Virus record (IMG/VR): IMGVR_UViG_2639762987_000002
DNA from: a virus
Lineage: Duplodnaviria; Heunggongvirae; Uroviricota; Caudoviricetes
DNA: 64,000 nucleotides
Reading direction: 5' to 3' (one strand)
Shown here: positions 5,954-61,936 of the stretch, piece by piece
Numbering within the stretch: position 1 is the stretch's first letter
Layout: each line of letters begins with the position of its first letter
Translations under genes and position numbers: made by a program
Notes under the pieces: generated by a model
Told to the model about the DNA's origin: nothing
The model's input: the letters and a program-made list of their open reading frames with translations, nothing else
Databases searched by the model: none

Positions 5954-6046
5954 TGGTAGAAAAAAATATTTATATCGGTAAAAATAAGTAGGTACTTACT
6001 TAATGGTGGGCAAGGATAGCCCACCAAATCAAGGAGCATATTCAAC

Positions 6047-9000: not shown

Positions 9001-9571
9001 ACCTGGTGTGAATACGACCGGTAATCAGAACACTACTGGTAATGCTGCAACCGCCACAAAATTGCAGACAGCAAGGAAAATTGCTGGTGTGGCGTTTGAT
9101 GGCTCTGCCGATATAACTTTGACTGCGGCTAACCTTAATGCTTATACGAAAACAGAGGTAACAAACCTTCTCAGTTCCTATGTGAAGAGTAGTTCTCTTC
9201 CAAGCATGACTGTGCGAACTTCCTCTGTTTCTGGTGGGGATATGGGCATGAGTTTGTCCACATTCATTAGCCACCTTAAATCAAATGGGGCATTTAGCAA
9301 AAGTTATTGGATTGGCTTTGGCGATGCTATGGGATTCAATGCTGGCAGTATCAACAATATAACGGGATTTGGTGCTGTAGAATTAGCAGAATCTATAATC
9401 GAAGTTTTTAATCTACCTAACGGTGATTATACAATTCGTTTAACAACGTCACATAAAGCTGACTACGGTGGAGTGACAAACGCAATCCTCGTTTATCACT
9501 ACCGTAGTAATAGAAGTCCGTCAGGTCAATGGCTGAAATTTGCCGGTACTGTTGGGGCAACAAGCAACTGA
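6047..9571 (+). CDS. Tail fibre protein (side-tail-fibre type)
   Basis: 1174 aa after RBS AAGGAG; long Ala/Ser-rich tract; repeated ~40-aa units with GNAATATKLQTARTIGGVSF typical of phage tail-fibre repeats; follows J-like gene. Confidence 0.75.
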   Translation: MWYREGTITFTQGSNTLVGAGTAWNVTANGVLPGMIVIGPDNKLYEIKRVTSDTNIVLSEPYTGETQSEVPCRIITTYEGDLTQFSARFTALMSRMSADSKSMRSWLTALDEVTIEREDGTEVTVKPLMQIVNEHNENVEWYKNNTDAIDAAGDKAREAAASAAAAAKSANAAGEKASQASQSASAAASSQSAASASATAAKKSETNAAASQKSAATSASTATTKASEAATSARDAAASKEAAKSSETSAASSASNAASSATAAGNSAKAAKTSETNARSSETAAGQSASAAAGSKTAAASSASAASTSAGQASASATAAGKSAESAASSASTATTKAGEATEQASAAARSASAAKTSETNAKASETRAESSKTAAASSASSAASSASSASASKDEATRQASAAKGSATTASTKATEAAGSATAASQSKTAAESAATRAEAAADRAEEIAGAVAMEDASLTTKGVVKLSSAVDSTSESLAATPKAVKTVKDSSVQKTGDTMGGQLKIGTINALRIFNQAFGLIFRRSEDYIHLIPTNEGEGENGDIGSLRPFSINLRSGLVSIGNGLKVGGSVTGNLTGNADTATKIKTARKIGGVAFDGSADINLPGVNATGNQNTTGNAATATKLQAARTINGVSFDGSANITLTPSNIGALALTGGTLSGGLTAAGEIISKSANGLRIAYGNYGFFIRNDGSNTYFMLTDSGNSLGTYNSLRPFIISNSTGNVTIATKLNASSGITGSLSGNASTATKLQTARTIGGVSFDGTANINLPGVNAAGNQNTTGNAATATKLQTARTINGVSFNGSANISIPTITSRGRVTALTGTTQGAATGLQMYEAYNNGYPSSYGNVLHLKGATAVGEGELFIGWSGTSGAHAPVHVRSRRDTDTSSWSEWAQVYTSKDSIPGVNATGNQNTTGNAASATKLQTARTIGGVSFNGTANINLPGVNIAGNQNTTGNAASATKLQTARTIGGVSFNGTANINLPGVNTTGNQNTTGNAATATKLQTARKIAGVAFDGSADITLTAANLNAYTKTEVTNLLSSYVKSSSLPSMTVRTSSVSGGDMGMSLSTFISHLKSNGAFSKSYWIGFGDAMGFNAGSINNITGFGAVELAESIIEVFNLPNGDYTIRLTTSHKADYGGVTNAILVYHYRSNRSPSGQWLKFAGTVGATSN
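6480..7390 (+). repeat. Low-complexity Ala/Ser/Thr-rich coding tract in tail fibre gene
   Basis: Protein region of ~300 aa dominated by A, S, T, K, E; generates spurious long ORFs in other frames and on the minus strand. Confidence 0.8.
7780..9125 (+). repeat. Tail-fibre 120-nt (40-aa) repeats
   Basis: Three in-phase consecutive copies at 8761-8880, 8881-9000, 9001-9120 plus diverged copies near 7861 and 8341 and partial copies. Confidence 0.8.
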
Positions 9572-9609
9572 TTTAGACATTATTTCTAATAAGGATAATT
9601 TATAAGATG

Positions 9610-9645
9610 GTTGTGAGGTCGATAAATATGGCCTCACAACCGCAG
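9610..9645 (+). terminator. Possible hairpin terminator after tail fibre gene
   Basis: 10-bp inverted repeat GGTTGTGAGG...CCTCACAACC; no clear T-run. Confidence 0.35.
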
Positions 9646-9661
9646 TTATAAGGATATATTT

Positions 9662-9916
9662 ATGAGCTATGGTGCACAGGTTTGGTCGCCATCAAGACAG
9701 GAGATGGTCGATGCGTTGGCCCCTGTTTATTACCTCGATTATTTTACTCCCTCTGGTTCAGGAAGTAGAACATATGAGGTTGAGGCGGGATTGGGAATCG
9801 ACTATTACATAATGGACGTAACCAATGGAAAATACACAAGTCTTACGGTTTCTGGAAATACCATTTCGTGGTCTGGAGCTAGTGGCAATTTAAACATATT
9901 GGTTTTTCAAAAATAA
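9662..9916 (+). CDS. Hypothetical protein (tail-fibre-associated by position)
   Basis: 84 aa ORF with RBS AAGGA; no recognisable motif. Confidence 0.4.
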   Translation: MSYGAQVWSPSRQEMVDALAPVYYLDYFTPSGSGSRTYEVEAGLGIDYYIMDVTNGKYTSLTVSGNTISWSGASGNLNILVFQK

Positions 9917-10524
9917 TGTACGGAAGCAAGATATATCGATCTGACGGGAAGGTCTGGATGTCTCCTTCTTTGTCTCCTATCGTTTTTCAGAGAAAGCAGG
10001 TTGTTTCTTTGTCTGGCGGGACAGAGTTTAACACCCAAATATCTCCAGATCGTTCACCGATGATTTTTGTTGCCTATTCGAAAGCTGTTTCATTAATAGC
10101 CAACAGAATAGTGCGTAATAACCAGGTGATTTACAGTTTCGGAGGTCAGGGTAGCGACTCTAGTGCCACGATATACGTATTTTCGAAAGGTATAGCCAAA
10201 AAAGAAACTTGGGGCATGAGTTTTTTCAATGCGCGAGGAGAGGAGATCTATAATACGGCAAATATCCCACTTTCATTTACCTTTCTTAATAATACGGAGT
10301 GGAACAGTTCTGGAGGGCATGTTTTTGATTACCCGCCAGCGATAATCCCAACATATGCAAATGTGTTCGCGGTTCCAGTACCGGGCGGGGCCATGACAAT
10401 GGTTTATGGATATGCGGCATATGGAAATACTGTTAGTTCCATATTCGTAAACCAACTTAATGGCGGCCATAGTTTTAGCGTAAATGGCAGAGTACCGGTA
10501 ATAAATAGAAATCTGTATAACTGA
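9916..10524 (+). CDS. Hypothetical protein (tail-fibre-associated by position)
   Basis: 202 aa ORF, start overlaps upstream stop (TAATG); Gly/Ser/Asn-rich; no recognisable motif. Confidence 0.45.
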   Translation: MYGSKIYRSDGKVWMSPSLSPIVFQRKQVVSLSGGTEFNTQISPDRSPMIFVAYSKAVSLIANRIVRNNQVIYSFGGQGSDSSATIYVFSKGIAKKETWGMSFFNARGEEIYNTANIPLSFTFLNNTEWNSSGGHVFDYPPAIIPTYANVFAVPVPGGAMTMVYGYAAYGNTVSSIFVNQLNGGHSFSVNGRVPVINRNLYN

Positions 10525-10534
10525 TGAGTAAACG

Positions 10535-10765
10535 ATGAAAAGATTATTTCTAACAATAGCTGTTGTTCTCTCTCTTACTGGCTGTCAGAAATTGCCGACA
10601 CCCATATGTTATGGTGAGGCTATCATTGGTGGACAGGAGACAGTCATACCTATATATGCTGTTAAAAAGGTTAACGGCTATACCTTATACAAAGCGGGTA
10701 GCATCTATAACTGGCGATGGGTTGGAGTAGGTGCTTTCTCATCAGTGCGTTGCAATGCTGAATGA
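10535..10765 (+). CDS. Small lipoprotein, candidate receptor-blocking / superinfection-exclusion protein
   Basis: 76 aa; signal peptide MKRLFLTIAVVLSLTGC with lipobox LTGC; lies directly downstream of tail fibre genes. Confidence 0.5.
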   Translation: MKRLFLTIAVVLSLTGCQKLPTPICYGEAIIGGQETVIPIYAVKKVNGYTLYKAGSIYNWRWVGVGAFSSVRCNAE

Positions 10766-10846
10766 TAAGTAAGTACACACCTACAACAAAAGGGTGAAAT
10801 GTGATATAAATCCGCCATCCCGATTTGACTTTTCATGGAGGAAAAC

Positions 10847-11170
10847 ATGTCGAACGAGATGGCGGGCGTTACAACAGAGCAAGTTGAGCGTATTGCCGCG
10901 ATCGTTGCTAGGGAGGTTGTTGGCAAATTAGGTAAAGAGCTACGTGAAGAAATTGGCCAGGAGGTCAATAATCAGCTGAAAACCTACTTTGGTGATATGA
11001 CCCCGGCGCAACATAGTATTCAACACTCCAATCTGGACAAACTCCTTAACCGGTTAGATTCCATCTCCAGTGGGTTCTTTGGCGGCATTGTTTCTAAAAT
11101 AACGTCGTTCATTATTACTGCACTGCTTTTGGGGTTAGCCGCGTATGGCGTAAAAAATGGACTGCAATAA
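10847..11170 (+). CDS. Membrane protein with C-terminal TM helix (possible holin)
   Basis: RBS GGAGGA before ATG 10847 (ORF track begins 10835); single C-terminal hydrophobic helix; first gene of putative lysis cassette. Confidence 0.35.
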   Translation: MSNEMAGVTTEQVERIAAIVAREVVGKLGKELREEIGQEVNNQLKTYFGDMTPAQHSIQHSNLDKLLNRLDSISSGFFGGIVSKITSFIITALLLGLAAYGVKNGLQ

Positions 11171-12129: not shown

Positions 12130-12286
12130 GACGCAGGCTCCAGGCGTGCTATTCTGCGATGCTGCAAATCCTATTTATGTGAGTAGAGAGGATTTTATGA
12201 CTGAGGAAACGGAGCGACAGTTGCTTATCCACAATACGATAGGTGAAAGGCTGTGTGAGTGGGGGGCACCTGAACTGAGTCGATGA
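12050..12286 (+). CDS. Putative o-spanin (Rz1-like lipoprotein), overlapping the i-spanin gene
   Basis: Alternate frame of ORF 11945-12286; signal peptide MKRLMKCGKKMPLVFIAS with lipobox IASC; start codon uncertain (12041 or 12050). Confidence 0.45.
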   Translation: MKRLMKCGKKMPLVFIASCLINGCVIKTQAPGVLFCDAANPIYVSREDFMTEETERQLLIHNTIGERLCEWGAPELSR

Positions 12287-12502
12287 TTGATGAGTGGTCT
12301 CAGTTTACCTTTTATCCTAAAGATGGCATCTTCACTCATATACACGCCTGTTCACTCAAGCTCATGTTGAATCATTTAGTAATTTGATGTAGATTTATTA
12401 GGCATCCACGTAAGTGGGCACATACAGGCTACGCATCCTCGTAGCCTTCAACCCCGAGAGGGGTGCCGCAATGACACTTGTGTTAACGGCTAAGGTGGAC
12501 AC

Positions 12503-12886
12503 ATGCTGAACGAGAAACGTTCTATACAAACTATTCGCGATTGCACGAGTATTATCGAGACTCATGTGCTGAATCAGCACAAGCTTGAAGTACGTAAGCT
12601 CAATAATGACGCTATTGAACCGGAAGACTCACGCTTCATCGTTACCTTCAAAGACGATGTTGAGCGCGCTGGTGCAAGCGTGAAGCCATTAGCTGAAGCA
12701 ATTTACCTGAATGGTCGTGTTCGTTTTGTAGTCAAGCCAGCTAAACAGTACCCTGAGCTGTCTCGTTTTATCGAGGCTTTTTCGGAGGTTATTGAACATT
12801 CTATTCGCCGCTTCTTACGCAATCATGGTAGCATTGTCAGCACGGTTAAGGCTGATGATTCTGCTACAAAATGGCTCCTACACTAG
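12503..12886 (+). CDS. Hypothetical protein
   Basis: 127 aa; overlaps next ORF by 16 nt, suggesting a two-gene operon. Confidence 0.45.
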   Translation: MLNEKRSIQTIRDCTSIIETHVLNQHKLEVRKLNNDAIEPEDSRFIVTFKDDVERAGASVKPLAEAIYLNGRVRFVVKPAKQYPELSRFIEAFSEVIEHSIRRFLRNHGSIVSTVKADDSATKWLLH

Positions 12887-13623
12887 ATAGCGCATATTCA
12901 AAAGATCTAAGCGAGTTTCCTCATAAAGGGGAGACTCGTGTTGTTCGTTTTGGCTTTCTTATCAATGAAGCCTCCCTCTATAAAATCTCAGAAATTGAAA
13001 TCATTGAACCAGAAGATGACATTTGCCTGTATGTCTCTATGGAACTTGTAGGTGCGCGCGACCAAGGCGACCTGAGCGAATTCATCTTAGATCGAGCGGA
13101 TGAAGATGCCCCTGAAGAAGAGATTATCAAAGAGGTGCTCCAGTCCGGGCTTCTGGACGAAAACAAAAATACGATCGCTGGTAGGATAGCTCTGCGTGAA
13201 TATAGTTTTGTTGAAGACGGTAATGAGATCGAATGTTACCAGGTAGCCGGTGTCGAAACTGTCAGAGAGCGTCGTCAGCGAGGATTGTGTCACCGTACCT
13301 ATCTCTTTCTTCTTCATTGGTATGAGCATTTAGTCTGCGACGATACACAAACCATTCCTGGTGCTAAGATCTGGGCAGGGCCTCTCATGCGAACCGGCGA
13401 TGTGCGTATATACAATGCCAAAACAGAAACGTTCGAGGATGTGTTAGGTGAGTACGGGATGGGGAAAGAAACCGGATTTTTGCCGTGGAACAGAGGATTG
13501 TTGCTTGATGCAGAGTTAAGCTCTTGGCTCCCAAACAAAGTGCAAGTTAACGTTCAGAAATTTATCGTACTTATCATCTCCCGCAAAACAAGAACTCCAG
13601 TAGGTTTATACCTAAAAGATTAA
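12871..13623 (+). CDS. Hypothetical protein
   Basis: 250 aa, acidic N-terminal half; followed by a terminator. Confidence 0.5.
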   Translation: MAPTLDSAYSKDLSEFPHKGETRVVRFGFLINEASLYKISEIEIIEPEDDICLYVSMELVGARDQGDLSEFILDRADEDAPEEEIIKEVLQSGLLDENKNTIAGRIALREYSFVEDGNEIECYQVAGVETVRERRQRGLCHRTYLFLLHWYEHLVCDDTQTIPGAKIWAGPLMRTGDVRIYNAKTETFEDVLGEYGMGKETGFLPWNRGLLLDAELSSWLPNKVQVNVQKFIVLIISRKTRTPVGLYLKD

Positions 13624-13628
13624 AAATC

Positions 13629-13651
13629 AGGCGACTTTGGTCGCCTTTTTT
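13629..13651 (+). terminator. Rho-independent terminator
   Basis: AGGCGAC-TTTG-GTCGCCT hairpin followed by TTTTT. Confidence 0.8.
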
Positions 13652-13751
13652 GTTAACAGCCATTGATTCTCGCCTAAAAATTCTAAGGCAGCACCTACCA
13701 TTTAACCTTTACACCACAGCCGTAGGCATTTAGGCTATATCACATATAAGA

Positions 13752-13799: not shown

Positions 13800-14468
13800 A
13801 TGACCAAGATCTTTGTGGTTGGCGGCACAAAGGGCGGGCCTGGCAAATCCACCGTTGCCCAGCAAATTGCCGTTTGCCTGAAAGTCAAAAAGAAGAAGAA
13901 GGTTTATATCACTGATATAGATATTCAGCGCACGACAACAAGCTGGTGTGAAGACCGTCGACAGAACGAAGACCTTGAGCTGATTCCTTTTGCATACGTT
14001 CAGGATGACATCATTAAGCACCTAAAATCGCTTCAGGGTAGAGCTGAGTTTGTAGTGGTAGATGCTGGTGGCTTCGACTCCGAAATTCAGCGACAAGCGA
14101 TGCTGATGGCTGACGTTATCATTATCCCGCTGCGTCCTAAGCGTCGTGATTTGAAATCTTTACGTGACATCGATCCTATTATCGACAATGTTCGCAATGT
14201 AAACGATAAAGTGAAGGTCCGCGCGGTCATGAACCAGTGCCCGGCTTTGCCATCACAAGTGTCTCGCATTCTGGCGGCTAAAGAGATTGTTGAGACGTTT
14301 GGCATCGAGTCTGCGCCAGTCAATCTATATAACCGCAACGTCTATGATGATGCGGAAGAGTCTGGTCGTTCTATCTTTGAAATGACCGGTAGCGAGCGCG
14401 ACAAAAAGGCGGAAGCCGAGTTTGAAGAATTTGTAGATTATCTGTTGAGTCTGGAGGAAGAAGAATAA
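13800..14468 (+). CDS. parA: ParA-family partition ATPase
   Basis: Deviant Walker A GGTKGGPGKST at N-terminus; 222 aa; followed by a small RHH-like gene. Confidence 0.75.
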   Translation: MTKIFVVGGTKGGPGKSTVAQQIAVCLKVKKKKKVYITDIDIQRTTTSWCEDRRQNEDLELIPFAYVQDDIIKHLKSLQGRAEFVVVDAGGFDSEIQRQAMLMADVIIIPLRPKRRDLKSLRDIDPIIDNVRNVNDKVKVRAVMNQCPALPSQVSRILAAKEIVETFGIESAPVNLYNRNVYDDAEESGRSIFEMTGSERDKKAEAEFEEFVDYLLSLEEEE

Positions 14469-14827
14469 TGTCCATGAAAATGGGTGACCTAGCAAAGCGC
14501 AAAGAGCCTGATGCACCGGCTAAGAACACAACTCCTTTGCGCCAACCAGTCAGACCACAGGGACGCCCGACTCGTGGCAAAGAGAAAATTAAAAGCCGCA
14601 CAATGTCACTGGAGGACGAATACTTCGAACTGCTGGAGATGATGAAGTTCATCCCTCGCTTCGAGAAGTTCACTCGTTCTGACGTGATTCGAGCAGCCAT
14701 TTTCCATCTGGCAGAGAAGTCACCGCAGGAAATCGAGGACATCGTGAAATTGAATGAGGCGATCACCGCTGCCGATGTCACGATGCGTACCGATGAAATT
14801 AAACGAGAGTTGATGAAGAAAGGTTAA
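14468..14827 (+). CDS. Putative centromere-binding protein (ParG/RHH-like)
   Basis: 119 aa; basic disordered N-terminus, C-terminal strand-helix-helix-like region; start overlaps parA stop. Confidence 0.4.
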   Translation: MSMKMGDLAKRKEPDAPAKNTTPLRQPVRPQGRPTRGKEKIKSRTMSLEDEYFELLEMMKFIPRFEKFTRSDVIRAAIFHLAEKSPQEIEDIVKLNEAITAADVTMRTDEIKRELMKKG

Positions 14828-14828
14828 A

Positions 14829-14865
14829 AGTTATGCATTGGCGCAATGTACGCGCCAATGCATAA
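14829..14865. other. Perfect 15-bp inverted repeat between convergent genes
   Basis: GTTATGCATTGGCGC-aatgtac-GCGCCAATGCATAAC; no T-run; terminator or protein-binding site. Confidence 0.5.
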
Positions 14866-14879
14866 CTACAGTGTCAGCT

Positions 14880-15647
14880 TTATGCCGCGCTAACACTATG
14901 TTCAGTCCTAACCACCCCAACCTTCACAAAAGGGCTACCGTAGCTTGGTGGCTTCTTGATTAATTTGCCTACATACAGTTTTCTAATATGCTCATCGGCT
15001 ATTCTGCCAACAAATTCATAACGTTTTGTGTCGGGGCCAAGAGCTATATCCCTTGTAAAGTACTGCTGAGAACCGGCTTTGACCCAGCATTCAATCTGAT
15101 AAACTTCCATTATCAGCCCACCATATGTAGCGTAGGCATATTTGAGATTCTCGTCTCTTGGAACCTTTGCCCATACGCCACGCGTAGCTTCATATAATGC
15201 CAGAGCGGACATTCCTGACTTGTAGGTGCTGTTTAGCAGGAAGGCAAGACCGGCGTGCTCAGGAGCAATTTCAGTTTCCTCTTGCAGCACTAAGTGATGG
15301 TAGGCGTCCAGTGATATTCTGCCCATCATGGAACCACTTCCTCGTACCTTATTCGTAAGCTCTCCGACCCCCATAAGGTCGATGCATGTCGCCTCAACAA
15401 GTTTGGCTGTGGTTTCATCCATACCATGACGAAGTATATCTATGCCTAATTTTTTATTAGCCAAAAGTTCTTTGATCCGCATGGATTTGGGAGAGTCATC
15501 GGGATACTTGATGTGATCGAGACAACGAGTCGATTTGCCTTTTCCTATGTAAAACGGTCTTTTCATCTTGTCTTCTGTATCATAGAGACAGTAAACATAG
15601 TATTTAGCCTTATCCAATGATCTCGCGTATACCGATAAATCGTCCAT
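14880..15647 (-). CDS. GIY-YIG family nuclease
   Basis: 255 aa on minus strand; N-terminal YYVYCLYD...PFYIGKGKSTR matches the GIY-YIG motif; C-terminal domain unassigned. Confidence 0.6.
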   Translation of the reverse strand: MDDLSVYARSLDKAKYYVYCLYDTEDKMKRPFYIGKGKSTRCLDHIKYPDDSPKSMRIKELLANKKLGIDILRHGMDETTAKLVEATCIDLMGVGELTNKVRGSGSMMGRISLDAYHHLVLQEETEIAPEHAGLAFLLNSTYKSGMSALALYEATRGVWAKVPRDENLKYAYATYGGLIMEVYQIECWVKAGSQQYFTRDIALGPDTKRYEFVGRIADEHIRKLYVGKLIKKPPSYGSPFVKVGVVRTEHSVSAA

Positions 15648-15765
15648 TATTGCATCTCTTTGCTACTGACTAATGCGTTCTATTTTACACATAAGTTTTT
15701 AATCAATTTAACAGGCTCAAAGTGTAGAGCTTCTGGGCGTCTAAGACGACAAGTTATGCCTGTTT

Positions 15766-23615: not shown

Positions 23616-23690
23616 GATGGTGTAGCTCAGCGGTAGAGCAGTTGGCTGTTAACCAACTGGTCGGTGGTTCGAATCCACCCACCATCGCCA
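23616..23690 (+). tRNA. tRNA-Asn (anticodon GTT)
   Basis: Manual fold: acceptor GATGGTG/CACCATC, anticodon loop CTGTTAA, T-loop TTCGAAT, 3' CCA. Confidence 0.75.
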
Positions 23691-23695
23691 ATTTA

Positions 23696-23782
23696 GGGGA
23701 GTTAGTCCGTAGAGGTAGCGGTGTAGACTGTAAATCTACTGTCATGGCGACTCGGGTGGTTCGACTCCATCACTCCCCACCA
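23696..23782 (+). tRNA. tRNA-Tyr (anticodon GTA), long variable arm
   Basis: 87 nt; acceptor GGGGAGT/ACTCCCC, anticodon loop CTGTAAA, T-loop TTCGACT, 3' CCA. Confidence 0.65.
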
Positions 23783-23786
23783 AATT

Positions 23787-23862
23787 GCCGGTTTAGCTCA
23801 GTTGGTAGAGCGCCTGCCTTGTAAGCAGGATGTCAGCGGTTCGAGTCCGTTAACCGGCACCA
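23787..23862 (+). tRNA. tRNA-Thr (anticodon TGT)
   Basis: 76 nt; acceptor GCCGGTT/AACCGGC, D-loop AGTTGGTAGA, anticodon loop CTTGTAA, T-loop TTCGAGT, 3' CCA. Confidence 0.8.
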
Positions 23863-24079
23863 ACACAACAGGAAAGAGCATTGAAAACCGCCGAGACTGC
23901 CCTGTTTTAAGCGTAAGTCCGTGCAAACGTCATACAGTGCTCTTTTCGTTGTGGTTGATGCGCAGACTGATGCGCGGAAAGAAATGCCCCAGCGACACAC
24001 GAGGCGAGTTCACACACTGCAATGCAGTCAGTAGCCGGGGTCGCTAAGCCGGAGATCAGTACCGGTAACCACAACAATT

Positions 24080-24166
24080 GGAGAGTAGGGAGCATGGTGC
24101 TCAAGCGGTCTTGAAAACCGTCCCATTGTGCAAACGATGATGGTTCGATTCCATTACTCTCCGCCA
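24080..24166 (+). tRNA. tRNA-Ser (anticodon TGA), long variable arm
   Basis: 87 nt; acceptor GGAGAGT/ACTCTCC, anticodon loop CTTGAAA, T-loop TTCGATT, 3' CCA. Confidence 0.65.
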
Positions 24167-24320
24167 GACACAGCGTTGAGCGGTTTGGCCTTTTAATCAA
24201 CTCGATTAAGACTCCGCTAACATAAACCAGACCGCTCAACGCTGTGATAGATAATTACGGCAGACGTTCTTAACCATAGCTTGCTAACATCCTAGCAACA
24301 CTTTTTTCAGCGCAAAATTC

Positions 24321-24343
24321 AAAGGGGCTTCGGCCCCTTTTTT
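24321..24343. terminator. Bidirectional rho-independent terminator
   Basis: AAAGGGGC-TTCG-GCCCCTTT with A-run before and T-run after; sits between tRNA cluster and the end of a minus-strand gene. Confidence 0.8.
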
Positions 24344-24358
24344 GTTGAACAGTGCAAT

Positions 24359-25621
24359 TTACTTTGCATAGTCGCCCAATTTTAATATTTCGCGCTTATA
24401 TTCATTAACCATGCTACTGGATTCAGTATAAATTCGATTTAAAAGATTATCGTTATCTTTATTTTCATTTATCTTAATTAGTGCTAATTTATATTCATAG
24501 TCATCAAATGCCACAATTAAATGGTGGCCTGGGATTATATCTTCGTCACTCTTAAAGTATATATCTTCAAGTATGTAATCTAGTTGATTAGATTTTCTTT
24601 TCTCGATGTAATCTTCAGCCATAGCTATTACATCATTCCTGTCATTTAACCTGTTTTTTTCGGAAGGCACATCTTCGTAATGTTGCACGATTGAACAACC
24701 AATAAGGCGTGGGATGTAAACGTCAAAATGAGTAACTCTATCATTCGCGGTTTTAAGTAGTTCCTCAAAGTAGTTTCTTACATGTAAAGGCAACTTCTCA
24801 AAGTAATCATTAATTATAGGAGAACAAGGAGTTTTATAATTCATAAGAACCGACGGTACGAGCTTTGGGTGTCGAAACATCCAGTCCCTTTTAACGTCCG
24901 ATGGAACATAATAACTTTTAATGATATTATCAAAATAATTTATCATTCGAGATTTGAATATTTTGTTGAATCTAAGGTTTATGAATGTATCCAGATAAGG
25001 CATATTTGAATAAGCATCATCAAAAAATATTTCTTCATTGAAGAAATCATATTTATTTAATAAATAAAACAGTTTTTCCGAATTAATATGTTCACAATAA
25101 TCGATTTTTAATCCAAAGATAGCAATGATCAACTTCATCTGAGGTGGGATTTTAAAAATTAATTGTGACACATACGCTCTTTTTTCCTTGAGACATTCCC
25201 CATCAATATAAAATGAACCATCCACATACTCAAATATATTAATAATATGCTTCACATACTGTATTACCTCATGCTGTCTTACCAATGGATAATATAGTCT
25301 ATGTAACTCATCGCTGTTTAAATTAATTTTGTGTTTATCGATAATTTGTTTTGCAAGAAGACATAACTCATCATGTTGATTTAATAAGGAATCAAACCAT
25401 TGTTTAAATGCACTCTTTCGCATTTCGAACAATGATTCAGTTGTTAATTGAAGGGCTGAAAAAGCCGCTTTTGCACTTTTTCTCGCTTCGTAGGCATTCC
25501 ATGCTGTTGCTATAAAAGCAAATGCTGTAGCCAATGTTCCAACAGTTTGACCATTTAAAACAACCCAATCCCAAAAAATGACGGTGAGCAGTAGTATAAT
25601 AATGAAAATTAAAAAAGGCAT
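24359..25621 (-). CDS. AT-rich membrane-anchored protein of unknown function (candidate exclusion/defence gene)
   Basis: 420 aa on minus strand; two N-terminal TM helices; strongly AT-rich by eye relative to flanks; own terminator. Confidence 0.6.
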   Translation of the reverse strand: MPFLIFIIILLLTVIFWDWVVLNGQTVGTLATAFAFIATAWNAYEARKSAKAAFSALQLTTESLFEMRKSAFKQWFDSLLNQHDELCLLAKQIIDKHKINLNSDELHRLYYPLVRQHEVIQYVKHIINIFEYVDGSFYIDGECLKEKRAYVSQLIFKIPPQMKLIIAIFGLKIDYCEHINSEKLFYLLNKYDFFNEEIFFDDAYSNMPYLDTFINLRFNKIFKSRMINYFDNIIKSYYVPSDVKRDWMFRHPKLVPSVLMNYKTPCSPIINDYFEKLPLHVRNYFEELLKTANDRVTHFDVYIPRLIGCSIVQHYEDVPSEKNRLNDRNDVIAMAEDYIEKRKSNQLDYILEDIYFKSDEDIIPGHHLIVAFDDYEYKLALIKINENKDNDNLLNRIYTESSSMVNEYKREILKLGDYAK

Positions 25622-25713
25622 GTATGTATTTCACTCTACTAACTATAAAATATTAGGCTAATGTTAACCAAACAATGCCTTAATTAATAGATTGATCGAG
25701 GCTTTAATAGCTT

Positions 25714-25753
25714 TATAATGCAGACCGCAAAGATAGGTATGCACATACCTATC
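25714..25753 (+). promoter_or_regulatory. Promoter with TATAAT -10 followed by perfect palindrome GATAGGTATG-ca-CATACCTATC
   Basis: TATAAT at 25714-25719; palindrome 25732-25753 belongs to the dispersed GATA(A/G)GTA...TAC(C/T)TATC family. Confidence 0.5.
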
Positions 25754-25795
25754 TTCTTTGTAAGTAAAGTTACATATCAATTCTACGAGGTCACA

Positions 25796-26041
25796 ATGAC
25801 GATCACTATCTACGGACGAGATAACTGCTCATACTGCAAACGTGCGGTCGAGCTGGCGAAGCAACTAAAGGGACATGGCTACGGTGATTATGAGTACATC
25901 GACATCACCACTGCCGGTATCGACAAGGAAAAACTAAGTGAAATTGTTGGTAAACCGGTAGAGACTATCCCCCAAGTGCTGATCGATGGCCAACCGATTG
26001 GCGGATACACAGAACTGGCTGCATACGTCAGCACCCTCTGA
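25796..26041 (+). CDS. Glutaredoxin/NrdC-like thiol-disulfide protein
   Basis: 81 aa from ATG 25796 with RBS GAGGT (ORF track begins 25718); active-site CSYC; C-terminal GG motif. Confidence 0.65.
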   Translation: MTITIYGRDNCSYCKRAVELAKQLKGHGYGDYEYIDITTAGIDKEKLSEIVGKPVETIPQVLIDGQPIGGYTELAAYVSTL

Positions 26042-26046
26042 TTTTA

Positions 26047-26068
26047 ACGGCTCACAGGAGCCGTTTTT
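26047..26068 (+). terminator. Rho-independent terminator
   Basis: ACGGCTC-ACAG-GAGCCGT hairpin followed by TTTTT. Confidence 0.75.
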
Positions 26069-26251
26069 ATTCCCACCAAACTCACTCCCGTTTCCCTTAA
26101 AATTCAAAAAACAACGTCAAAATGATTCCATACCTACTATGTATGGAATCATTGCTGAAAATGAGTTACTTTTACTCTTGATCCTATAAGAATCTATGCC
26201 TAATATACTGTTTACTTATACAGTGCATCGGCGTAACTCGGTGATTGTCAT

Positions 26252-27355
26252 ATGAAAAATAGCTTTGACAGAGCACGCGCTGCGGAGAACACCTCAAAAG
26301 AGGCGATAGAGTATCTCGAAAGAGCATCTCAAATGCAGGCCGTTATGATCTCGCAGGTTAGCAATGACATGAGATTCTCGGACGCATTCATGTTATTCAC
26401 TCGCTTATCTCTGCTGATAACCAGACGTCGGCCAGAGATCGCTGTTCATTGTATTTTGATACATGTTTTGCCGCACATTGCCGATGTAAAAGTAAGTGAC
26501 ATTAATAGGTTCATGGTGAACCAACTGGTCAACCCACTAATACTGGATGGCAAAATTGTTATGGGCCGCCGCGTTTTCTCTCTGATGAAGCAGTTCCTTA
26601 GCTGGTGCGCCTTCCAGGGGATGATAGACGTGTCACCGTTAAACGATATGTCACTAAACAAAGTTGCCGGTGGCGCAAAGCCCACACCTCGCGAGCGGAA
26701 GCTGACCGACGCAGAGGTATGGGTGTTCTGGAATATATGGGACTACTTCAATGTGTGCGCTGGTACAAAATGGGCGGCCAGGCTGTGTCTTGTATCCGCA
26801 AGACGACCTGACGAAGTACTGCGGGCTAAAAAAAGTGAGTTCAATCTTAAGCGTGGGGTTTGGAATCAAGGCAAGAGGAACAAATCTGCCCGTGAGCATT
26901 CGCTGCCTTTAAGCACATTAATGCGCACATGTATTGAAGAGTTGTTCGAATACGGTAAAGGCAGCCAGTGGCTCGTGCCTTCGAATAAAAAAATCGGGAA
27001 AGACCTTCCTATGTCTAAAGTGGCAATAGCCCAGGCATTACGTCGTATCCTGGAACGACCAGAACTGATGGAGCTTGAGCCATTTACACCCCGAGACTTG
27101 CGCCGTACTGCGCGTAGTTACTTCCCAGCATTAGGCATAAGCCAGGAGGTATCACGTAAAATCATGAACCACAGTCTTGAGGGGATAGATCGAGTCTACG
27201 ACCGGCACGATTATATGGACGAGATGCGAGACGCCTTAGAAAGTTTCTCGACGTACATCGCATCAATCGTAGAGCAACCGGATTTAGACGAAATTGACCA
27301 CAAATTTAAGGGAGATCGTCTATCAACAGAGCTTATTCGTGTAAATTTTTCATAG
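26252..27355 (+). CDS. Tyrosine site-specific recombinase (integrase or resolution recombinase)
   Basis: 367 aa; C-terminal region with ARRPDEVLR, LRRTARSY, NHSLEG...YDRHDY resembling tyrosine recombinase boxes. Confidence 0.6.
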   Translation: MKNSFDRARAAENTSKEAIEYLERASQMQAVMISQVSNDMRFSDAFMLFTRLSLLITRRRPEIAVHCILIHVLPHIADVKVSDINRFMVNQLVNPLILDGKIVMGRRVFSLMKQFLSWCAFQGMIDVSPLNDMSLNKVAGGAKPTPRERKLTDAEVWVFWNIWDYFNVCAGTKWAARLCLVSARRPDEVLRAKKSEFNLKRGVWNQGKRNKSAREHSLPLSTLMRTCIEELFEYGKGSQWLVPSNKKIGKDLPMSKVAIAQALRRILERPELMELEPFTPRDLRRTARSYFPALGISQEVSRKIMNHSLEGIDRVYDRHDYMDEMRDALESFSTYIASIVEQPDLDEIDHKFKGDRLSTELIRVNFS

Positions 27356-43765: not shown

Positions 43766-44101
43766 ATGAAGACCATCCCATTCGCGCTGTTGTTTCTTTC
43801 TTCGATCGTTGTGGCTGACACCACTGTTTATCAGTGTGAAATGTCTGTAGCCGACGTTAAGAATGGCGCTCTTACCGACGTCATAAAAGCACCATATGGA
43901 GCGATGGTCGTAGACAGCGGCGACCAGTTCTATGTTGTGCGTGACGATCGAGTGTTGTCATCCCCATATCTCACAAATCGTAATGGCAAATTAACCGGCG
44001 TCGGAGAAGACCACTTCGTATACAACAAATACAAGGGCTTCTATGGCGTTCACGCTTCTCAGCAAAGCTACCTTTTCGATGACTGCAAGGAGGTTGGGTA
44101 A
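43766..44101 (+). CDS. Secreted small protein (signal peptide)
   Basis: 111 aa; N-terminal MKTIPFALLFLSSIVVA signal; RBS AGAGGTGG. Confidence 0.5.
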   Translation: MKTIPFALLFLSSIVVADTTVYQCEMSVADVKNGALTDVIKAPYGAMVVDSGDQFYVVRDDRVLSSPYLTNRNGKLTGVGEDHFVYNKYKGFYGVHASQQSYLFDDCKEVG

Positions 44102-44313
44102 TGGCATTAACACTGGCAGGTCTGGAAATCGAGAAAACAAGCGGCTACTGGCGTGCTAAGGGTTTCAAGCAGCCTGGCATTCTTGAGCGTCTGGAACGTG
44201 AAGATGGGTATATCGTCCACCAGCGGCGTGAATGGCGTATGTACGATCCAGAAACAGGAAAACTGACTACAAAAGCCGGAACACTTTGGGGTCTGTTGAA
44301 GAAAATACACTAA
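44101..44313 (+). CDS. Hypothetical small protein
   Basis: 70 aa; start overlaps upstream stop (TAATG). Confidence 0.45.
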   Translation: MALTLAGLEIEKTSGYWRAKGFKQPGILERLEREDGYIVHQRREWRMYDPETGKLTTKAGTLWGLLKKIH

Positions 44314-44360
44314 ATGCAAACTGACTGCGGCTCGTTCCGCAGTCATATTTCATAGTCGTC

Positions 44361-44893
44361 ACCGCTGACAGCATACACAATCAACTACCGCTGATAGCAT
44401 ATCGAGAGTCTATCTCACCGCTCACAGCATACTTTACTCGATTTTTTACCGCTGACAGCATACTTAAGAAATTGCATGAATAATGTGTCCCGGTATGGGT
44501 ATAACCAGAACAAAATTACCGCTGGCAGCATACGAATGTCTGACATATACCATTAATTACCGCTGATAGCATATCCAAACAAAAATTCCTCAATAAAACA
44601 CCGCTGACAGCATACGTTCTATCAGGGAGTAGCAGGCAATAAATGCCTTTCACTACAAGCAATCAGCGCAATAGCAATAGAATGTTAGTGAGCGCAAACC
44701 TATATGGAATGCACTCTTCGAGGTTAGTAACCACTGGGGAGGTATGACAGAGCATTGAGTGGTGATAGATGATTTACCGCTCACAGCATACGTTCATCTC
44801 ACTATACCGCTGGTAGCATATCTTTAACCGTTCACAGCATACTTTTCAGAAAAATAGCCGCTGATAGCATACATTTCACCGCTGACAGCATAT
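44361..44893 (+). repeat. Iteron array downstream of rep gene (12 direct repeats, consensus ACCGCTGACAGCATAC)
   Basis: Copies begin at 44361, 44387, 44417, 44448, 44518, 44559, 44600, 44776, 44806, 44827, 44857, 44878; all same orientation, irregular spacing 21-70 bp. Confidence 0.85.
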
Positions 44894-45987
44894 CAAAGCA
44901 GTTTGAGACTATTGGAAAGGATCTCAATCATCTTGATATTTTCAGGCGTCAAATTCTGCGAAAGTTCGGTTATCTTGTTGATAATGTTCTGTTTGGCATC
45001 AATTTCCCCAGCTTTCTCATCTGGTTTTTTGGGTTCGATGTCTTCAGGTTTTGGCGGTGCGACTTTGAGTTTTGGATTGCGGCTGTGAATCTGGATATAG
45101 ATCGACCGCCCACGCTTAATCTCGCTGTATTCGAGATAGCCCAAATCTTGGAGAGCTTTTAAGCCGTTACGTATAGTCTGATTCTGCGAGCTGACATTCC
45201 TGCTACTCAAATTGAGTCGCGCACGCAATCGAGCAAGCGATACCGGCGCAGGCTTGGTTGGAAGACTTTCGATGAAGGTGTACAGAGCCTGTGCTGTTTC
45301 TTTGCGTGGTAGCTTATTGATAACCTTTAACTGCAAAAGAACCTTATGGTCAAAGCGATATAGCTCGGCCAGCTTCGGTTCTGCATAGAACACCACCGTA
45401 TCTTTCTGCTCGTTGTAGTCCACGCTATTGATGAGGTGCACCATCAGAAGCGAGATCTTGTTAGAGCCGTCGACGTTCTTTTCTTCATACGTTCTCTGGA
45501 AAGACAGAGTTGTACGCATGATCTTCAAAAGACTGTTTGTAAGCCGGTCGCGGAGTGTTTTGCGGATCTGTGACGATGGATAGCCACAAAACTTAGCAAA
45601 TTTCGTGATGCTTAACTCGACACGACCGTTAGGTTCGCCGTATTCTGCCAGCGAACGCACAACGCCCACCCACGTTTTGAAATCATGATCCATGTCGAGA
45701 CGAGGACCGGTTATCTTGATATCGGAATAGCCTTCAGAACGGGCTACTTCGAGCTGGACAAGCTCCTTTGAAGCATCGATCTCATTTGGCTTGTTACGTT
45801 TACTGTATTTTGTTCCCTTAAGCGTGGGGACGAACAACCCCAGTCGCATCAACGCAATTGGTTGGACTGTATTGTTGCTATTAGGGACAAGTTCCCCTGT
45901 GTACAATTCAAGGGAACCTTCTTCAAAGTTGTCGATGTTATCTTCTACTTCTTTGTTATTTTTACCTTTTTTATTTTTTGTGGACAT
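44893..45987 (-). CDS. repA: Iteron-binding plasmid-type replication initiator (RepA-like)
   Basis: Minus strand, 364 aa from ATG at 45987 with RBS AAAGG (ORF track extends to 46107 across iterons); flanked on both sides by iterons. Confidence 0.6.
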   Translation of the reverse strand: MSTKNKKGKNNKEVEDNIDNFEEGSLELYTGELVPNSNNTVQPIALMRLGLFVPTLKGTKYSKRNKPNEIDASKELVQLEVARSEGYSDIKITGPRLDMDHDFKTWVGVVRSLAEYGEPNGRVELSITKFAKFCGYPSSQIRKTLRDRLTNSLLKIMRTTLSFQRTYEEKNVDGSNKISLLMVHLINSVDYNEQKDTVVFYAEPKLAELYRFDHKVLLQLKVINKLPRKETAQALYTFIESLPTKPAPVSLARLRARLNLSSRNVSSQNQTIRNGLKALQDLGYLEYSEIKRGRSIYIQIHSRNPKLKVAPPKPEDIEPKKPDEKAGEIDAKQNIINKITELSQNLTPENIKMIEILSNSLKLL

Positions 45988-46007
45988 GTGGACACCTTTG
46001 TCATTCA

Positions 46008-46109
46008 ACCGCTGACAGCATACTTGATTTGCCGCTGACAGAATACCAAAAACAGTTGGCAGCATACGGTGAACCGCTGACAGACTATCAATTACCGCTG
46101 ACAGCATAC
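46008..46109 (+). repeat. Origin-proximal iterons upstream of rep gene (5 copies, about 21-bp periodicity)
   Basis: Copies at 46008, 46031, 46052 (degenerate), 46073, 46094. Confidence 0.8.
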
Positions 46110-46149
46110 ATGAACATGACTTCAGACCAGGCGTGGCGCGGCTTACAGC

Positions 46150-46222
46150 GATCGGGGATCTTATTTGATCTATATAAGGATCTGTCTATGGATCTCTTTA
46201 TTAGGATCTATCCTGTGGATAT
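46150..46222. promoter_or_regulatory. Origin-like region: six clustered GATC sites and a DnaA-box-like TGTGGATAT
   Basis: GATC at 46150, 46157, 46168, 46180, 46191, 46205, four inside (A/T)GGATCT heptamers; TGTGGATAT at 46214-46222 is 8/9 to the DnaA box. Confidence 0.6.
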
Positions 46223-46308
46223 GTGAATAATTAAAACAGGCATTTACTACCTTCGGCGCACCTGGTGGGTTATCGTTGCCTCGGCTAACAATCACAGAAA
46301 AATGACAT

Positions 46309-61342: not shown

Positions 61343-61936
61343 ATGATTGCAGCCGAAAAAATCAAACAGCGAAAGCGCGACAACTCTCTTCGTGACCTCT
61401 GGAGAACACCTGACTGGCTGTTTTCTGCCATTCAACGTTATCTTGGAGTGACATTTGATGTTGACGTTGCCTGCAACAAGGACAATGCAAAGCTGCCTAA
61501 TTTCATAGGCGTTGAGCGTGATGCTTTGAAATCTGAATGGGGACAGCCAGGTACAATTGCCTTCCTCAATCCACCCTACTCCAAAATCTCCCCCTGGATT
61601 GATGCGGCTATACGTGAGCAGGCTCGCGGAGTTACAACAGTGATGCTAATTCCTCAATCCCTAGATACAAAGTGGTATGAGCGTGCAACAGAGTGTGCGA
61701 ATGAGACGATTATTCTGTCTGGTGGCCGCGTAGCGTTTGTCGAGCCTGACGTAAATCTGGGTCAGGTAGAAGTAAACATCAACCCAGGTGGCAGTATGCT
61801 CGTTGTTTTTCGAGGATTCTGTCAGGACGCTGGGCACTCTATAAGCAAGATCCCTTTGGACGTCATGAAAAGTCTGGGAGGGTATGATCCTGCGAATGTG
61901 ATCAGGAAAAAAAGACCATCAAAGAAGGCTGCTTAG
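61343..61936 (+). CDS. DNA N6-adenine methyltransferase (phage Dam-like)
   Basis: 197 aa; catalytic FLNPPYSKISPW (NPPY) motif. Confidence 0.7.
   Translation: MIAAEKIKQRKRDNSLRDLWRTPDWLFSAIQRYLGVTFDVDVACNKDNAKLPNFIGVERDALKSEWGQPGTIAFLNPPYSKISPWIDAAIREQARGVTTVMLIPQSLDTKWYERATECANETIILSGGRVAFVEPDVNLGQVEVNINPGGSMLVVFRGFCQDAGHSISKIPLDVMKSLGGYDPANVIRKKRPSKKAA

Follow-up and report, generated by a model that had tools for sequence, protein, structure and literature searches.

An iteron replicon of the P1 RepA/RepFIB class in a 64-kb sequence from an SSU5-like Escherichia coli phage-plasmid

The rep gene and its flanking iterons

The DNA analysed was a 64-kb stretch of a tailed-phage sequence (the window). 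Within it, a rep gene on the minus strand lies between two sets of iterons, and a G+C-rich block, a cluster of GATC sites and a pair of DnaA boxes lie beyond the upstream set. The features of this locus, and those elsewhere in the window that bear on it, are as follows.

13800-14827, plus strand: ParA-type ATPase gene (222 aa; Pfam MipZ, AAA_31, CbiA and ParA) and a 119-aa partner open reading frame
44322-44345, both directions: terminator-like G+C-rich hairpin of 9 pairs with a T-rich tail, from a consensus scan
44361-44893, minus strand: control array (equivalent of P1 incA), 12 iterons in the same orientation as the origin iterons
44715-44735, minus strand: non-iteron block AGTGGTTACTAACCTCGAAGA, 21 bp, inside the iteron-free spacer of the control array, from local alignment
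44893-45987, minus strand: rep (repA), 364 aa, ATG at 45987; predicted iteron-binding initiator of the P1 RepA/RepFIB family
45979-45995, minus strand: two tandem weak DnaA-box-like 9-mers, GTGTCCACA and ATGTCCACA, two mismatches each
46008-46110, minus strand: origin iterons (equivalent of P1 incC), five direct copies spaced 21 to 23 bp
46123-46149, minus strand: G+C-rich spacer containing CCAGGCGTGGCGCGGC, conserved with P1 oriR
46150-46208, minus strand: GATC (Dam) cluster, six sites, mostly AGATCC heptamers on the rep strand; 32% GC
46214-46230, minus strand: two overlapping DnaA boxes, TGTGGATAT and TGTGAATAA on the plus strand, ATATCCACA and TTATTCACA on the rep strand
61343-61936, plus strand: Dam-type N6-adenine methyltransferase gene (Pfam Dam, 2.5e-38)

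The first-pass annotation had described a 364-aa Rep initiator on the minus strand, with five upstream iterons about 21 bp apart and 12 irregularly spaced downstream iterons. Each was recovered, and the coordinates were all right to within 1 to 2 bp. With up to three mismatches allowed, the iteron core CCGCTGACAGCATA occurred 21 times in the window, compared with 4.6 ± 2.0 times in shuffled sequences, none of which (0 of 100) reached 21 copies. Sixteen of the 21 matches, all on the plus strand, belong to the arrays on either side of rep, to which a three-mismatch copy at 46053 is added, and every copy with two or fewer mismatches is inside these arrays. Together the arrays hold 17 phased copies in one orientation, with the consensus (G/A)TATGCTGTCAGCGGT on the rep strand.

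The five upstream copies (46009, 46032, 46053, 46074 and 46095) are spaced 23, 21, 21 and 21 bp apart, and the set ends 21 bp ahead of the rep start codon. The 12 downstream copies (44362, 44388, 44418, 44449, 44519, 44560, 44601, 44777, 44807, 44828, 44858 and 44879) are grouped as five, three and four going outwards from rep, with spacings in that direction of 21, 30, 21, 30, 176, 41, 41, 70, 31, 30, and 26 bp. The array includes a 162-bp spacer (44615 to 44776) free of iterons. That all the control iterons share one orientation had been overlooked in the first-pass annotation, as had the second DnaA box and the distance of the partition genes from the replicon.

Both the mechanical list of open reading frames and RefSeq give rep as a 404-aa frame that runs across iterons; the 364-aa start is favoured by alignment with P1 and by the annotation of a relative with a 99.7% identical Rep, deposited as Escherichia phage PhiR41_1 (host K-12 MG1655). 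In BLASTP, Rep shared 46% identity with P1 RepA across 278 of the 286 residues in the latter (E 3e-86), and in tblastn Rep matched repA of P1 and P7 (E 2e-64). At the level of sequence, the 46% identity settles the family, and Rep, genuinely homologous to P1 RepA, is longer than it by about 30 residues at the N terminus and about 55 at the C terminus. A profile search against the Rep_3/RepA families, suggested as a check in the first-pass annotation, gave Pfam Rep3_N (winged-helix domain WH1) 37.5 bits, above its cut-off of 22.4 (E 3.9e-9). Rep3_C (the second winged-helix domain, WH2) scored 13.0 bits, below its cut-off of 21.1; P1 RepA itself, at 20.5 bits, is also just under that value. No NCBIfam family matched Rep, and PDB searches by sequence, run both with Rep itself and with a four-sequence profile, found no meaningful match and no solved structure. 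A single-sequence AlphaFold2 model (mean pLDDT 40, pTM 0.28) was of too low quality for the fold to be judged.

The rep promoter presumably lies within the origin iterons. A sigma-70 consensus scan found no rep-strand promoter in or near these iterons, and manual inspection gave weak candidates only, inside the iterons. Because the scan found none, autorepression by Rep is assumed from position alone.

The origin core and the P1 R replicon

The region upstream of the origin iterons has the composition of an iteron origin core of the P1 type. GC content is 71% over 46123 to 46156. The six GATC sites (46150, 46157, 46167, 46179, 46191, and 46205), previously placed within 60 bp, fall within 59 bp; the window averages 4.1 GATC sites per kb, and its next densest 80-bp stretch has three. 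The cluster is presumed to be the unwinding region and a SeqA target. The DnaA-box-like sequence noted beyond it in the first-pass annotation is TGTGGATAT at 46214-46222, one mismatch from the consensus, and it is overlapped at 46222-46230 by TGTGAATAA, a strict consensus box. Only 16 DnaA boxes with no more than one mismatch occur in the entire 64 kb.

The annotated P1 record has a DnaA site, five Dam sites, incC with five iterons, repA and incA with nine iterons, in the same order as the window. The likeness to the P1 R replicon claimed in the first-pass annotation thus holds feature for feature, and the origin core (DnaA boxes, GATC heptamers, and GC-rich block) is 77% identical in nucleotide sequence to the annotated oriR. 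In this alignment the DnaA boxes at 46214-46230 fall on the 18-bp DnaA protein_bind feature of P1 oriR, and the GATC sites align one to one with its five annotated Dam sites, except that P1 has GGTCC where the window carries its sixth GATC. Both replicons have five origin iterons, spaced 22, 21, 21 and 21 bp in incC and 23, 21, 21 and 21 bp in the window, and in both the spacings of the control iterons are helical multiples, near 21, 31 and 41 bp.

The two replicons also differ in several respects. The iteron itself is TATGCTGTCAGCGG in the window and ATGTGTGCTGGAGGG in P1. The gap from the last iteron to the rep ATG is 21 bp in the window but 56 bp in P1. The 12 control iterons of the window are all direct, with the 162-bp spacer between them, whereas six of the nine in P1 are inverted; thus, looping geometry may differ. 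The two tandem 9-mers at 45979-45995 overlap the rep ribosome-binding site and start codon and may correspond to the rep-proximal DnaA box of P1, and the Klebsiella plasmid pJN2-26 has GTATCCACA, with one mismatch, at the equivalent position. However, the case for these boxes is weak because such matches occur 3.7 times per kb.

In P1, parA, parB and parS directly follow incA, whereas no parABS adjoins the control array of the window, where the open reading frames are small, on the plus strand and without Pfam matches. The ParA-type ATPase gene (13800-14468) is 30 kb from the replicon; with its partner frame, which had no Pfam match, it presumably constitutes the partition system, and parA and parB are listed for the related plasmid pECOH89 (PMC3999498). 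A search for a centromere-like repeat array beside the ParA gene yielded nothing beyond short matches in two copies and, at 14829-14867, a perfect palindrome of 16 nt. Adjacency of par genes does not define the replicon class, but its lack shows that the locus does not simply reproduce the maintenance block of P1. The phage backbones differ as well, that of the window being of the SSU5-like siphovirus type and P1 being a myovirus.

Relatives and distribution

The closest relatives of the locus are on pECOH89 and p09EL50, which were published as SSU5-like phage-like plasmids (PMC3999498). Rep is 100% identical to that of both plasmids, with no differences over 364 aa. The control array is 99.2 to 99.3% identical and the 2-kb locus 99.7% identical, and the replicon does not otherwise differ. 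Colinearity with p09EL50 extends over the whole window, at 91 to 99% identity, with BLASTN blocks covering most of it and divergent patches at 6.5 to 10.9 kb (tail fibre), 12.2 to 13.7 kb, 14.8 to 15.8 kb, and 24.2 to 26.1 kb. The annotation of p09EL50 includes tail proteins, dnaE, a DnaB-like helicase, nrdAB, thyA, a ligase and Dam. This colinearity and the identity of Rep bear out the phage-plasmid lifestyle proposed in the first-pass annotation.

More distant relatives of the SSU5/pHCM2 type and from Klebsiella share with the window the genomic position of the replicon and its neighbouring genes. The Klebsiella Rep is about 85% identical to that of the window, the origin core of pJN2-26 is 83% identical, and the Klebsiella iterons are equal to those of the window, with five plus eight copies in pJN2-26. 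SSU5 is further removed, with a RepA 47.9% identical (tblastn), an origin core 70% identical, about 300 bp inserted between the GATC cluster and the rep-proximal iterons, and a control array that is partly inverted rather than all direct. Its iteron, CTATCCACTGTAGTG, is unrelated in sequence to that of the window, despite a match between the spacers of the two control arrays, where the 21-bp block at 44715-44735 agrees with SSU5 at 18 of 21 positions in a local alignment. The P1, SSU5, Klebsiella and E. coli lineages share a conserved origin core, while their iterons and Rep have diverged together.

RepFIB replicons (P307, F, pO157, and Klebsiella IncFIB) encode a Rep that shares about 50% identity with that of the window across some 280 aa, as seen in more than 4,500 plasmid records. 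As in the window, their rep gene lies between upstream origin iterons and downstream control iterons, and a DnaA site is present; however, their iteron specificity is different, and the carriers are conjugative multireplicon plasmids, not phage.

The 2-kb locus was found at 95% identity or more in 122 plasmid records, which are circular E. coli or Shigella plasmids, mostly of about 110 kb, and 120 of these 122 keep the control array at full length. PhiR41_1, by contrast, has a nine-iteron array, in which an 87-bp iteron-to-iteron deletion removes three distal copies. Among 143 matching records, 136 are nonmobilizable. Of 5,426 complete E. coli genomes, 120 carry the replicon, which occupies 185 places on plasmids and none on chromosomes. 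MOB-suite assigned p09EL50 and pECOH89 a single replicon, rep_cluster_488. The name of the replicon in the typing scheme is IncFIB(H89-PhagePlasmid), a type reported for 110-kb phage-plasmids resembling pECOH89 (PMC12838234). The novelty of the locus was therefore overrated in the first-pass annotation, as both replicon and lifestyle were already catalogued.

Proposed function and alternative explanations

The anatomy of the locus, the homology of Rep and the origin core to P1, the identity to known phage-plasmids and the exclusively plasmid location are directly established. We conclude, with a probability of roughly 93%, that the locus is a replicon of the P1 RepA/RepFIB class by which an SSU5-like E. 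coli phage-plasmid of the pECOH89/p09EL50 type is maintained as a plasmid prophage, and that it most likely works like P1 oriR.

By analogy with P1 and RepFIB biology, from which we infer every biochemical step, Rep monomers would bind the five phased origin iterons, and host DnaA would bind the tandem boxes at the far end. The AT-rich stretch of Dam-methylated GATC heptamers would then melt, allowing the host replisome to be loaded. After firing, SeqA would sequester the hemimethylated GATC cluster, and Rep bound to the origin iterons would repress its own promoter. The Dam-type enzyme encoded by the element itself could keep the origin GATC sites methylated. The 12 downstream iterons would restrain copy number in two ways, through titration of Rep and through handcuffing with the origin, a Rep-mediated pairing expected both in cis and between sister copies. 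This role in copy control and incompatibility is suggested by P1 incA and by FIB replicons, in which the downstream iterons are the controlling set that exerts incompatibility and the upstream ones form the origin (PMC11983097). For iteron replicons, a review covers chaperone-dependent monomerisation, titration and handcuffing together with control by Dam and SeqA (PMC6090056).

The control region might be more than a plain P1-like incA. A host or phage factor linking copy control to the lysis-lysogeny state could bind the 21-bp block, and gain and loss of iterons, as in PhiR41_1 with nine, could tune copy number. We consider this elaboration unlikely. If it were true, iteron-number tuning would concern phage-plasmids that often carry resistance genes.

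The same Rep and iteron origin might also, or mainly, serve as the lytic (vegetative) origin of the phage and not be dedicated to low-copy maintenance. In favour of this, the element encodes its own DnaE, DnaB-like helicase and primase-like (toprim) protein. However, a control array of this size is a means of limiting copies, and the locus turned up on stably maintained plasmids and nowhere else. In P1, the closest studied homologue, oriR serves the plasmid state and a separate replicon is used for lytic growth, as the annotation of the P1 record also indicates. A lytic role in place of, or alongside, maintenance is thus improbable.

It is still less probable that the maintenance replicon is a decaying relic and that another, unrecognised replicon maintains the element. 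The failure of the sigma-70 scan to identify a rep promoter would fit such decay, but Rep is the same in pECOH89 and p09EL50, nearly all matching plasmids (120 of 122) retain the complete 12-iteron array, and this is the only replicon typed in plasmids of that type. Conservation of the origin core from P1 to E. coli phage-plasmids, while iterons and Rep diverge together, also argues against a relic.

We attach almost no probability to the repeats being attL/attR recombination sites or a partition centromere instead of initiator-binding iterons: the GenBank record of pJN2-26 labels two repeats attR and attL, but these labels fall on two ordinary iterons, the 17 phased copies flank a Rep3-family gene in the exact incC/incA arrangement of P1, the ParA-type genes are 30 kb away, and the locus is never chromosomal. 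A CRISPR-like array was also considered and was rejected in view of the phased copies around the Rep3 gene, the P1 layout and the lack of any chromosomal location.

As a P1-like maintenance replicon, the locus is ordinary and already known. No new biology is opened, because the replicon class, element family and lifestyle are all established. The locus does confirm that the window derives from an SSU5-like phage-plasmid, and it provides a replicon map at base level. This map corrects annotation, since the RefSeq rep runs over its own iterons and the iterons of one relative are labelled as att sites. It also aids the design of incompatibility or curing cassettes, for which the downstream iterons are the effective part in FIB replicons (PMC11983097), and it helps in reading copy-number variants of phage-plasmids that bear CTX-M-15.

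The hairpin at 44322-44345 is situated between a plus-strand gene (44101-44313) and the control iterons and is kept in p09EL50 and PhiR41_1. It probably shields the control array and rep from read-through. An Rfam scan of the whole window at gathering thresholds returned tRNAs only, none of them in the replicon locus. A tyrosine recombinase is encoded at 26252-27355.

Architecture of the replicon

The first-pass annotation had described a P1-type replicon in this phage genome. The observation was confirmed; every feature listed in the 44.3- to 46.3-kb region was present.

Features of the replicon and of loci discussed with it
13800-14867: presumed partition module, with a ParA-type ATPase (222 aa) and a 119-aa partner ORF (13800-14827)
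44322-44345: hairpin, from a consensus scan
44362-44892: twelve downstream (control) iterons, from a core scan
44715-44735, minus strand: 21-bp block AGTGGTTACTAACCTCGAAGA
44893-45987, minus strand: rep, 364 aa, ATG at 45987
45979-45995: two tandem weak DnaA-box-like 9-mers, TGTCCACA, 2 mismatches each, over the rep ribosome-binding site and start codon
46009, 46032, 46053, 46074, 46095: five upstream (origin) iterons, spacing 23/21/21/21
46150-46208: six GATC sites in 59 bp, in a stretch of 32% G+C
46214-46222: DnaA box 1, TGTGGATAT
46222-46230: DnaA box 2, TGTGAATAA, overlapping box 1 and fitting the strict consensus TTWTNCACA
61343-61936, plus strand: Dam-family N6-adenine methyltransferase (Pfam Dam, 2.5e-38)

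Five upstream iterons at about 21-bp spacing and twelve downstream iterons had been claimed, and both arrays were recovered. The 14-nt core of the 16-bp iteron, CCGCTGACAGCATA, has 21 matches across the 64-kb window when up to 3 mismatches are allowed, against 4.6 ± 2.0 expected from shuffled windows; 21 copies were reached in 0 of 100 shuffles. Seventeen copies make up the two arrays either side of the rep ORF, in one orientation. The other four are 3-mismatch copies outside the arrays, the number expected by chance. Read on the rep strand, the iteron consensus is (G/A)TATGCTGTCAGCGGT.

Beyond the upstream iterons, a block of 71% G+C precedes the GATC sites. The GATC cluster, claimed as six sites within 60 bp, is the densest in the window, where the mean is 4.1 sites per kb and the runner-up has 3 in 80 bp. 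The DnaA-box-like site that had been noted is box 1; the overlapping box 2 had been overlooked. At the position matching the weak 9-mers, Klebsiella plasmid pJN2-26 has a better DnaA-like 9-mer, GTATCCACA, with 1 mismatch.

The mechanical ORF and the RefSeq (PGAP) version of Rep are 404 aa long (44893-46107; 8594-9808 in record L001) and start 40 codons earlier. This start falls in the outermost origin iteron, and thus the 404-aa ORF runs through all five iterons. Support for 45987 as the likely true start of a 364-aa protein comes both from the P1 RepA alignment and from the record of Escherichia phage PhiR41_1. No sigma-70 promoter for rep was detected by a consensus scan.

A profile search had been proposed for the 364-aa protein. 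The Pfam Rep3_N domain (WH1 of iteron initiators) was found at 37.5 bits (cutoff, 22.4), whereas Rep3_C scored below threshold. Similarity to plasmid initiators was clear, with 46% identity to P1 RepA over 278 residues (BLASTP; E, 3e-86). Among phage records, tblastn recovered repA of P1 and P7 (E, 2e-64), SSU5 repA (47.9% identity), a group of Klebsiella SSU5-like phages and plasmids (about 85%), and three E. coli phage records (99.7 to 100%). A PLSDB protein search gave at least 5,000 matching records; among the matches listed, most were initiators annotated as RepB or RepFIB, about 50% identical, from E. coli and Klebsiella plasmids. The Rep3_N score and the matches to P1, P7, SSU5, and RepFIB place Rep, by sequence similarity, in the large P1 RepA/RepFIB family. 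Rep has about 30 N-terminal and about 55 C-terminal extra residues, which also occur in SSU5 and the Klebsiella relatives but not in P1.

Comparison with P1 and other relatives

The feature order, claimed to mirror the P1 R replicon, is that of the P1 GenBank record: a DnaA protein-binding site, five Dam sites, the five iterons of incC with the repA promoter in them, repA, and the nine iterons of incA. The origin iterons are equal in number and spacing, and the control-iteron spacings (mostly 21, 30 to 31, and 41 bp) are whole helical turns, as in incA. However, six of the nine P1 control iterons are inverted, whereas the twelve in the window, in groups of 5, 3, and 4, are all direct. In P1, the counterpart of the weak 9-mers at the rep start is CTATCCACA, which precedes repA by 27 nt. 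The P1 partition genes adjoin the replicon, whereas the presumed module of the window is 30 kb from it. In the presumed partition module of the window, the 119-aa partner ORF had no Pfam match, a perfect 16-nt inverted repeat (14829-14867) follows the gene pair, and no centromere repeat array was recognized nearby.

The likeness to the P1 replicon exceeds analogy: the origin core (DnaA boxes, AGATCC heptamers, and block GCCGCGCCACGCCTGG) shares 77% identity with P1 oriR. Core identity is 83% with pJN2-26 and 70% with SSU5, and the iterons of P1, SSU5, and the window element are mutually unrelated. The replicon is thus modular, with a conserved host-factor-facing part and a diverged specificity part (Rep and iterons). 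A 105-kb E. coli plasmid, NZ_CP124469.1 (104462-104614), matches only the origin-core end (46148-46300; 87% identity), which suggests that other SSU5-like replicon types pair the same DnaA/GATC core with a different Rep and iteron module.

Identity and distribution of the replicon

Megablast with the 2-kb locus found 143 plasmid records, 122 at 95% identity or higher; most carriers are nonmobilizable plasmids from E. coli or Shigella, about 110 kb in size. Rep is identical at 364/364 residues to that of the best-known carriers, p09EL50 (E. coli O104:H4) and pECOH89. The pECOH89 paper, published in 2014, counted this phage-like plasmid among the relatives of SSU5, pHCM2, and pLF82 and noted the RepA identity with p09EL50 (PMC3999498). 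The feature is the already known IncFIB(H89-PhagePlasmid) replicon (typing label, PMC12838234) of a common E. coli SSU5-like phage-plasmid; standard typing databases include SSU5-type replication genes as IncFIB (bioRxiv 10.1101/2025.09.12.675607). SSU5-related groups are established phage-plasmid groups, and size, host, and Inc type indicate that the element probably falls in the pSLy3 group (PMC7969092, PMC11652158).

The interpretation of a phage-plasmid lifestyle was supported. The entire window is colinear with p09EL50, whose annotation includes tail genes, dnaE, a DnaB-like helicase, nrdAB, thymidylate synthase, ligase, and a Dam methylase. Among 5,426 complete E. coli genomes, 120 carry the locus, at 185 places, all on plasmids and none chromosomal. 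It is possible that the origin is additionally used for lytic replication. That the replicon is a relic is unlikely because Rep is identical to that of reference plasmids, both iteron arrays are intact, and these plasmids have no other typed replicon. The reading of the iterons as att sites was rejected. Those marked attR (1378-1397) and attL (2648-2667) in the pJN2-26 record are two ordinary Rep iterons flanking rep, and the labels are an annotation artifact of repeat-based prophage callers.

The map matches the family prediction exactly. In the searchable literature, "oriR" is absent from papers naming pHCM2, pMT1, or SSU5, and "iteron" is unused for SSU5-like phage-plasmids; the one exception is a report on Klebsiella IncpKPHS1 plasmids, which describes four downstream iterons. 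Thus, a base-level replicon map may add annotation value.

Control array, proposed mechanism, and accessory loci

Twelve control iterons are the usual state: the full array was covered in 120 of the 122 matching plasmids. PhiR41_1 (6001-6515) has an 87-bp iteron-to-iteron deletion (window 44361-44447) that removes precisely the three outermost control iterons and leaves 9; pJN2-26 has 8. The 21-bp block lies within a 162-bp iteron-free spacer (44615-44776). It is identical at 18 of 21 positions to the corresponding spacer of the SSU5 control array despite the unrelated iterons, and pJN2-26 retains part of it (TAACGTCTAAGAG). The block may be a binding site for an additional factor. The hairpin probably halts a converging plus-strand transcript before it enters the array.

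P1 replication is described in the literature of Abeles, Austin, Chattoraj, and Wickner. We infer all steps of the following mechanism from that literature, P1/RepFIB biology, notes in the P1 record, and two reviews on iteron-based control (PMC6090056, PMC11983097). Chaperone-activated Rep monomers would fill the five origin iterons, on one helix face, and DnaA would bind the tandem boxes at the opposite end. The AT-rich heptamer region in between would melt only with its GATC sites fully methylated, and SeqA would hold the hemimethylated cluster once initiation was done. Rep on the origin iterons would silence the rep promoter, and the twelve downstream iterons would titrate Rep and, by pairing with the origin, block reinitiation. 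With its own Dam-type methylase, the element could modify the six origin GATC sites without relying on the host and so keep its origin methylated wherever it resides.

Four patches lack a BLASTN-level match to p09EL50, with the rest of the backbone colinear: 6534-10916 (the tail-fiber region), 12249-13693, 14825-15756, and 24246-26119. The third contains a minus-strand 255-aa ORF (14880-15647) with a LEM-3-like GIY-YIG nuclease domain, and the fourth contains a minus-strand 420-aa ORF (24359-25621) with no Pfam match and a glutaredoxin (25718-26041). These patches probably represent host-range and accessory or defense cargo. A plus-strand tyrosine recombinase (Pfam Phage_integrase; 26252-27355) may be a Cre-like dimer-resolution enzyme, not an integrase; among complete E. 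coli genomes, no integrated copy of the element was found. A tRNA cluster at 23616-24166 comprises four genes (Asn-GTT, Tyr-GTA, Thr-TGT, and Ser-TGA); the pECOH89 paper reported just two, Thr and Asn (PMC3999498).
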